In this document: one piece after another, positions 61,217 to 62,404 of the stretch
How the letters are laid out: each line of letters begins with the position of its first letter
How positions within the stretch are numbered: position 1 is the stretch's first letter
Assembly: GCF_003334785.1 (NCBI RefSeq)
Contig: NZ_QOWV01000002.1
Strand: one strand, 5' to 3'
DNA: 64,000 bases
From: Escherichia coli
GTDB taxonomy: Bacteria; Pseudomonadota; Gammaproteobacteria; Enterobacterales; Enterobacteriaceae
Notes under the pieces: model-generated
What the model saw: only the letters and a program-made list of their open reading frames with translations
What the model was told of the DNA's origin: nothing
Databases searched by the model: none
Program-made: the position numbers and the translations under genes

Positions 61217-61687
61217 TCAGGCGTGTTCTTTCAGCCAGTTCAGCACAACGTCGTGGTGATTGCTGGTTTTGAAATCGTCAAAGACATGTTCGATTTTGCC
61301 ATCAGCGTCAATCAGGAAGCTGATGCGATGAATGCCATCGTAGGTTTTGCCCATGAAGGACTTTTCACCCCAGACGCCGAATTGTTCGCACACCTGGTGG
61401 TCCTCATCAGACAGGAGCGTAAAGTTAAGCAGCTCTTTTTCCGCAAAACGGGAGAGTTTTTCGGGTTTATCGGTGCTGATACCCAGCACATCAACGCCCG
61501 CTTTTTTCAACTCATCCATGTTATCGCGTAAGCCGCAGGCCTGTACGGTACAGCCGGGGGTCATGGCTTTCGGGTAGAAATAAACCAGAACACGCTGTCC
61601 CTGGAAGTCGGTCAAATTAACTTGTTCTCCGTCTTGATCCGGCAAGCTAAATTTCGGTGCGATATCACCGGCTTTCAGTGGATTCAT
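61217..61687 (-). CDS. bcp: thiol peroxidase Bcp (peroxiredoxin Q)
   Basis: 156-aa ORF; peroxidatic Cys in FYPKAMTPGCT. Confidence 0.95.
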   Translation of the reverse strand: MNPLKAGDIAPKFSLPDQDGEQVNLTDFQGQRVLVYFYPKAMTPGCTVQACGLRDNMDELKKAGVDVLGISTDKPEKLSRFAEKELLNFTLLSDEDHQVCEQFGVWGEKSFMGKTYDGIHRISFLIDADGKIEHVFDDFKTSNHHDVVLNWLKEHA

Positions 61688-62259
61688 TACTTAACTCCAT
61701 CCTGTTCATCATGTTGGGAATAATTGACGACGTTAATACTGCCTTGTGCATTGAGTTCTGTACATAGGGCTTTGAACGCTTGCTCAATATTTGCTGCGTC
61801 CGCAGATGCGGGGCTGTGGGCGGTTATCTGAATATGCAACTGCGCAGCCCGTTCATTTTCAGCAGGTTGCGTGCGCGACACCAGCTCCGCAATGTTCATA
61901 TGATGCGCGTCGAAAAGTGCTGTGAAGCGTTCAATTAAATGCGGGGAGTCTGCCACATCGACCTGAACCCAGACAGATGCTGGCATTGGCGGACGCGGAC
62001 GCGCCGTCGTGCGCTTCATCACGATTAAAAGATCCAGTTCGGCACCTTTCAACGGTAACGTTGATTCAATCAGAGTAATGGCATTCCATGAACCGGAAAG
62101 CAGCATAATAAACGTGAACTCTTCTCCCAGCATCGCCAGGCGACTGTCTTCAATATTACAGCCGCAACTACTGACATGACGGGTGATGGTGTTCACAATT
62201 CCAGGGCGATCGGCACCCAACGCAGTGATCACCAGATAATGTTGCGATGACAGTGTCAA
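61687..62259 (-). CDS. gcvR: glycine cleavage system transcriptional repressor GcvR (tandem ACT domains), UUG start
   Basis: Track ORF 61687-62325; known 190-aa protein begins MTLSSQHYLVITALGADRPG..., which corresponds to a TTG codon (L in ...ITSLTLSSQ); the start assignment rests on prior knowledge. Confidence 0.82.
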   Translation of the reverse strand: MTLSSQHYLVITALGADRPGIVNTITRHVSSCGCNIEDSRLAMLGEEFTFIMLLSGSWNAITLIESTLPLKGAELDLLIVMKRTTARPRPPMPASVWVQVDVADSPHLIERFTALFDAHHMNIAELVSRTQPAENERAAQLHIQITAHSPASADAANIEQAFKALCTELNAQGSINVVNYSQHDEQDGVK

Positions 62260-62404
62260 ACTGGTTATTCCTTTAAGGGGTGAGTTGTTCTTAAGGAAAG
62301 CATAAAAAAAACATGCATACAACAATCAGAACGGTTCTGTCTGCTTGCTTTTAATGCCATACCAAACGTACCATTGAGACACTTGTTTGCACAGAGGATG
62401 GCCC

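Follow-up and report, generated by a model that had tools for sequence, protein, structure and literature searches.

We characterized the gcvR-bcp locus at the end of a 64,000-nt stretch of Escherichia coli DNA, the whole of which is called the window below. This end of the window holds the gcvR-bcp locus of E. coli K-12; its gcvR start codon and gene overlap were already known, and the analysis re-derived the reference annotation. Positions 61000-62700 match E. coli K-12 MG1655 at 100% identity; every one of the complete E. coli genomes searched (5426/5426) contains the locus. On the minus strand lie hyfA, bcp and gcvR, in order of increasing position, followed on the plus strand by dapA and bamC. 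Gene coordinates (Table 1) are those of the RefSeq annotation of the identical MG1655 sequence, converted to window positions, and the transcription start sites (TSSs) of Kim et al. (2012) were mapped by equating the gcvR start at 2597928 with window position 62259. The K-12 genes gcvR (b2479) and bcp (b2480), as recorded in RefSeq and EcoCyc and described by Ghrist and Stauffer (1995, 1998), have the same sequence, the same TTG start and the same shared base, and the TSS positions are those of K-12 gcvR and bcp (Kim et al., 2012); no difference from the K-12 locus was found.

The gcvR product is the glycine cleavage system transcriptional repressor, a protein with tandem ACT domains. It scores 397 bits against the NCBIfam equivalog model NF008612 (cutoff 267), and profile positions 1-189 of 189 align to residues 23-211 of a 212-aa open reading frame (ORF), which corresponds to the 190-aa form. 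Precomputed Pfam matches on orthologs at least 78% identical assign the two ACT domains to PF13740 and PF01842, and GcvR is homologous to the ACT-domain structures 1U8S, 2NYI, and 1ZPV. Binding to GcvA and glycine-triggered release are known for the identical E. coli GcvR (Ghrist et al., 2001; Heil et al., 2002), as summarized in PMC6410093 and PMC1557403. Bcp scores 309.9 bits against the equivalog model NF006960 (cutoff 140), with residues 1-155 on profile positions 1-155 of 156, and its translation carries PGCT...C (YFYPKAMTPGCTVQACG), a peroxidatic cysteine motif of the PxxxTxxC type. In neighboring hyfA, the longest ORF (60347-61003, minus strand; 218 aa, ATG at 61003) exceeds the annotated gene of 205 aa, another case in which the longest ORF does not begin at the annotated start.

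Table 1. Features of the gcvR-bcp locus, in window coordinates
Feature	Position	Strand	Remarks
hyfA	60347-60964	-	RefSeq, converted
Terminator-like hairpin CGACACGGGTGTCG, then T-run	61100-61130	-	87 nt past bcp stop; first such signal after gcvR
bcp coding sequence	61217-61687	-	156 aa; thioredoxin-dependent thiol peroxidase / PrxQ-type peroxiredoxin; RefSeq
TAATG junction	61685-61689	-	gcvR TAA and bcp ATG, one shared base; GGAGTTAAGTAATGAATCC
gcvR coding sequence	61687-62259	-	573 nt, 190 aa; TTG start, TAA stop; RefSeq
bcp Shine-Dalgarno GGAG	61695-61698	-	Within last gcvR codons, 7 nt before ATG
Candidate internal bcp TSS	61700	-	13-nt leader, inside gcvR; TSS 2598487, 11 reads; PMC3415461 Table S1
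Weaker candidate bcp TSSs	62017, 62097	-	TSS 2598170 (6 reads) and 2598090 (5 reads); PMC3415461 Table S1
gcvR UUG initiation codon	62257-62259	-	T, T, and G invariant in 79/79 scorable loci
gcvR Shine-Dalgarno AAGGA	62269-62273	-	9 nt upstream of UUG; read from sequence
5′ extension of longest ORF	62260-62325	-	Assigned to non-coding gcvR leader and promoter region; TTG 62325 not assigned as a start codon
Main gcvR TSS	62286	-	27-nt leader; TSS 2597901, 27 reads; Kim et al. (2012), PMC3415461 Table S1
Minor gcvR TSS	62358	-	99-nt leader; TSS 2597829, 17 reads; PMC3415461 Table S1
dapA	62405-63283	+	RefSeq, converted

The Junction of gcvR and bcp

The original prediction held that the gcvR stop and the bcp start share position 61687, and this proved correct: the TAA occupies 61689-61687 and the ATG 61687-61685, the minus strand reading GAT GGA GTT AAG TAA overlapping ATG AAT CCA. 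Co-directional bacterial genes are most often joined by overlaps of 1 or 4 nt, and the same TAATG overlap occurs 1.3 kb away at the hyfA/hyfB junction (60345-60349, minus strand); the 1-nt TAATG overlap is ordinary for bacterial operons, not rare. Nor can the pairing of a regulator with a peroxiredoxin be called unusual, as had been proposed. When the gcvR locus was collected from one genome each of 80 Enterobacterales species, gcvR and bcp were adjacent in all 80, and in five of the six informative distant loci a GcvR-like gene (30-43% identity) is directly followed by an AhpC-TSA/Redoxin gene, with gaps of 9-80 nt. On the opposite strand, upstream of the distant GcvR-like genes, lie dapA and/or bamC; one distant lineage has a phoH-like gene in place of bcp. 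Judging from these loci, the gcvR-bcp pairing is ancient and widespread, and its deep conservation, with the neighbors kept together across the Gammaproteobacteria, is a mild curiosity.

The distance between the gcvR stop and the bcp ATG varies. The 1-nt overlap occurs in 41 of the 80 loci; two have a 4-nt overlap (ATGA), three (Erwinia, Mixta) a 23-nt overlap in which the gcvR 3′ end changes frame, and one a 41-nt overlap. Gaps of 2-3 nt are found in 15 loci, gaps of 14-19 nt in another 15, and gaps of 26, 40, and 160 nt in one locus each. Over this range (-41 to +160 nt) the exact overlap is not conserved. In the Erwinia and Mixta loci concerned (L069, L072, L074, and L078, near 2540-2600), the gcvR 3′ end lies in another frame, encodes a C-terminus ending ...KMESCDESTESR and runs 23-41 nt into bcp; given this frame switch, the junction geometry is evolutionarily plastic. 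In 79 of the 80 loci, the 16 nt preceding the bcp ATG include a GGAG. Across these loci, what evolution keeps is adjacency and an independent bcp Shine-Dalgarno sequence, not the overlap.

These comparisons bear on the proposal that bcp translation is obligatorily coupled to that of gcvR, with ribosomes that terminate at TAA reinitiating at the ATG and the weak UUG setting Bcp output as well. The proposal draws on the 1-nt overlap in E. coli and 41 of the 80 species, on larger overlaps in six more, and on the lack of intergenic space or a terminator; an overlapping or abutting stop and start, such as the TAATG at 61685-61689, is what a coupled pair should show. Such a pair should also have a downstream start that is masked or devoid of a Shine-Dalgarno sequence. 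The bcp start is neither, and gcvR-bcp therefore lacks one mark of obligatory coupling: the conserved GGAG stands at optimal spacing and permits de novo initiation, and no RNA structure that would occlude the start is predicted (junction fold z = -0.14 vs. shuffled sequences). Moreover, the pair is kept throughout despite gaps of 2-160 nt in 33 of the 80 species and of 9-80 nt in distant relatives, and the candidate TSS 13 nt upstream of the ATG would yield a bcp-only mRNA. Bcp is a fairly abundant protein and GcvR a scarce one, and this piece of general knowledge does not fit a 1:1 output. Obligatory coupling is therefore improbable. Of the translational linkage originally predicted, the overlap and the adjoining position of bcp stand, whereas the variable junction, the gene's own GGAG, the lack of a masking fold and the nearby TSS speak against it; the linkage is probably not obligatory and could plausibly contribute to a minor extent at most.

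Slightly less probable again is the opposite proposal, that bcp is an independent transcription unit served by promoters inside gcvR only, with the overlap reflecting mere compact packing. RegulonDB-style operon lists in PMC3946193 give gcvR and bcp as single-gene units, and three bcp-assigned TSSs lie within gcvR (Kim et al., 2012). However, the internal TSSs have low counts (5-11 reads, in a data set with many weak intragenic sites), below the 27 and 17 reads of the gcvR promoters, and a consensus scan found no terminator-like site between the genes, so that read-through would be hard to avoid. Adjacency is also strictly conserved over large evolutionary distances, and modest co-regulation is seen in two transcriptome studies: gcvR and bcp shift together in acid-treated E. 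coli (1.4x and 1.2x) and in Yersinia pseudotuberculosis grown in plasma (2.3x and 1.4x). The original prediction had named a bcp promoter of its own, unaccompanied by read-through from gcvR, as evidence that would count against linkage; a candidate promoter is indeed present, but nothing speaks against read-through. With a common strand, no terminator between them and conserved adjacency (80/80, plus 5/6 distant loci), the two genes have the properties expected of an operon. The Conway 2014 and Yan 2018 (SMRT-Cappable-seq) supplements searched list neither gcvR nor bcp.

The gcvR-bcp unit probably ends at the terminator-like hairpin downstream of bcp, where the terminator-like signal is placed at 61130-61117. 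Ahead of this hairpin, the stretch after the bcp stop (61148-61199, minus strand) contains two further elements: GCTGGC...GCCAGC (~61176-61197), which is a GC-rich hairpin, and GTGATCAAGATCAC (61148-61161), which is perfectly palindromic.

Promoter and Initiation Codon of gcvR

Read counts at the two gcvR TSSs are low relative to strong promoters in the same table (PMC3415461), and PMC2615304, citing Ghrist and Stauffer (1998), characterizes the PgcvR promoter as constitutive and low-level. Scanning the minus strand from 60900 to 62500 for the sigma-70 consensus detected no promoter, and the experimentally mapped promoters are therefore weak matches. For the +1 at 62286, no canonical -10 and -35 hexamers could be assigned; the conserved TATGCT at -18 to -13 is too far upstream for a canonical -10. 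Upstream conservation is highest in T8-ATGCTTTCC (62295-62311, minus strand), a block at -25 to -9 of this +1. The minor gcvR TSS at 62358 (minus strand) and the dapA TSS at 62381 (plus strand) belong to back-to-back, overlapping promoters, a candidate extended -10 of gcvR, TGgTACGTT, overlapping the reverse complement of the dapA -10, TACCAT (62358-62381). The fold of the 27-nt gcvR leader RNA is no more stable than that of shuffled sequences (z = 0.03); with this value and that of the junction (z = -0.14), the idea of a structure-gated start was dropped.

The longest minus-strand ORF covering gcvR (61687-62325) opens at a TTG and encodes 212 aa, as the original prediction stated and the ORF translation confirmed. 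The prediction had placed the true start at an internal TTG, and this too is upheld: the codon at 62259-62257 opens the sequence M-T-L-S-S-Q-H-Y-L-V-I-T and equals the RefSeq start of the 190-aa protein. In each of the 80 Enterobacterales loci, the counterpart of the first codon of E. coli gcvR was located. All 79 scorable loci have TTG there, as does the remaining, frameshifted one; the gcvR start is thus never AUG within these 80 species. The frameshifted locus (L045:1990-2010, Leclercia adecarboxylata NCTC13032) is disrupted just past the LVI codons, by an assembly error or as a pseudogene, with the TTG and Shine-Dalgarno sequence intact. Upstream of the codon, an AGGAA core at -13 to -9 is 97-99% conserved at fixed spacing among the Enterobacterales loci, compared with 41-80% at the flanking positions. 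In 25 loci, including those of Enterobacter, Kluyvera, Pseudocitrobacter, Mangrovibacter, Erwinia, and Brenneria, an in-frame stop lies 15-21 codons upstream of the TTG with no ATG, GTG, or TTG in between, and in these loci the conserved TTG is therefore the sole possible start. Position 1 of the NCBIfam GcvR model falls on residue 23 of the long ORF, which is the TTG 62259 codon, and distant homologs (30-45% identity), as well as PDB 1U8S, start 2-8 residues before the first beta strand.

Beyond the sampled species, a 68%-identical gcvR homolog has GTG at the same position, and homologs outside the order have ATG. The 68%-identical gene (L093:1501-2075) places its GTG behind an AGGAAG Shine-Dalgarno sequence, and it ends in a TAG that overlaps the GTG start of bcp (TAGTG). 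A full-text literature search on the gcvR start codon, gcvR-bcp and ribosome profiling, covering sources other than the primary gcvR papers, returned nothing relevant; one Xanthomonas paper uses "gcvR" to denote a glycine riboswitch and has no bearing on GcvR. In 1998, Ghrist and Stauffer reportedly identified a UUG start by N-terminal sequencing of a GcvR-LacZ fusion, with the main TSS 27 bp before it and a minor TSS said to lie ~100 bp upstream, in agreement with the TSS data of 2012.

The 22 codons that the long ORF adds show a different pattern. No Shine-Dalgarno sequence could be read upstream of TTG 62325, and this TTG is missing from the main gcvR transcript, since the main TSS lies downstream of it. 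Of 79 loci, only 12 have the long-ORF TTG (codon -30) in frame, and within Escherichia, poly-C indels of +1 and +4 nt in the leader break the long frame. The tract (62277-62280, minus strand) has four C residues here and five or eight in other Escherichia species representatives (L003, L002). Residues 1-22 of the 212-aa ORF gave no match to the GcvR family profile NF008612. The promoter block upstream of gcvR, TTGTATGC-T8-ATGCTTTCC, is conserved at the nucleotide level, and this accounts for the amino acid likeness of the extension among E. coli, Salmonella, and Klebsiella. That the true product is the 212-aa protein, or that both forms are made, is very unlikely: the ORF does extend to 62325, a transcript from the minor TSS at 62358 would contain TTG 62325 and could give a trace of the long form, comparable open N-terminal extensions exist in Salmonella and Citrobacter and, with an ATG, in Klebsiella/Raoultella, and some database entries are annotated at 211-212 aa, but the TTG lies outside the main transcript without a Shine-Dalgarno sequence, the extension is cut by stops in 25 species, shifted by indels within Escherichia and foreign to the GcvR profile, and its likeness between genera is explained by the promoter block. 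Initiation of GcvR at UUG 62259, not at TTG 62325, is strongly supported by these comparisons and by the position of the main TSS.

Many gcvR database entries would benefit from this distinction. Annotated lengths of orthologs at least 78% identical (proteins P0002-P0120) range from 177 to 252 aa, and many entries, such as the 212-aa protein of Salmonella and the 211-aa protein of Klebsiella oxytoca, look like longest-ORF start miscalls, for which the invariant AGGAA-N9-TTG signature provides a simple rule of correction. The discovery value is otherwise small, since the UUG start and the 1-nt overlap are already in the K-12 reference annotation and the locus was characterized in the 1990s. One of the listed proteins, P0030, is a 331-aa GcvR-Bcp fusion attributed to the fungus Astraeus odoratus; most likely, a eukaryotic gene caller was run on a contaminating enterobacterial contig.

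Expression of the Pair and Comparison with Known Systems

Taken together, the locus is best read as encoding a 190-aa GcvR started at UUG and transcribed from a weak promoter, with read-through into bcp, translation of bcp from its own Shine-Dalgarno sequence and only minor coupling, a reading to which we give a probability of about 85%. The gcvR mRNA would arise mainly from the weak constitutive promoter whose start lies 27 nt upstream of the coding sequence, at 62286, and ribosomes would reach UUG 62259 through the conserved AAGGA 9 nt before it. The 22 additional codons of the longest ORF would be leader and promoter DNA that chances to be open. Because there is neither a terminator nor intergenic space, transcripts from the gcvR promoter are expected to enter bcp, and a further contribution to bcp mRNA probably comes from weak starts inside gcvR, notably the one 13 nt ahead of the bcp ATG. 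Translation of bcp would proceed mainly from the GGAG within the last gcvR codons, and termination-reinitiation at TAATG would make a small addition at most and would not be required.

The non-AUG start and the weak promoter may together keep GcvR, the anti-activator of GcvA, at a low level, and the conserved non-AUG start would fit selection for low GcvR dosage. A more speculative possibility, which we consider improbable, is that a GcvR-like ACT protein and Bcp form a functional module, for example one that ties glycine or one-carbon status to peroxide defense. We found no paper on a functional link between a GcvR-like ACT protein and a peroxiredoxin. Two observations speak for the idea: the dapA-bamC | gcvR-bcp gene order persists to homologs of ~30% identity, and a non-AUG gcvR start is kept across Enterobacterales (UUG in the 80 species, GUG in the 68%-identical relative), which would suggest selection on the dose of GcvR relative to a co-transcribed partner.

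Several features of the locus have parallels elsewhere. The putative GcvR of Vibrio cholerae (PDB 1U8S) is homologous over residues 6-183 (E = 3.7e-39) and has tandem ACT domains and a similarly short N-terminus. It is ~40% identical to GcvR, and homologs of that level (30-43%) have an ATG start and a gap before bcp. Low-abundance E. coli proteins with non-AUG starts include those of lacI (GUG) and cya (UUG), and gcvR resembles these genes in having a weak, conserved initiation codon on a low-copy protein; for gcvR, the rationale would be dosage, that is, the GcvR:GcvA ratio. The junction, in turn, is comparable to those of trpE-trpD and trpB-trpA of E. coli and of hyfA-hyfB, which likewise show overlaps of the TAATG/TGATG/ATGA type with the downstream Shine-Dalgarno sequence embedded in the upstream coding sequence. 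Translational coupling has been demonstrated experimentally for the trp pairs. For gcvR-bcp, where coupling is only putative, the comparative data show the overlap to be dispensable.
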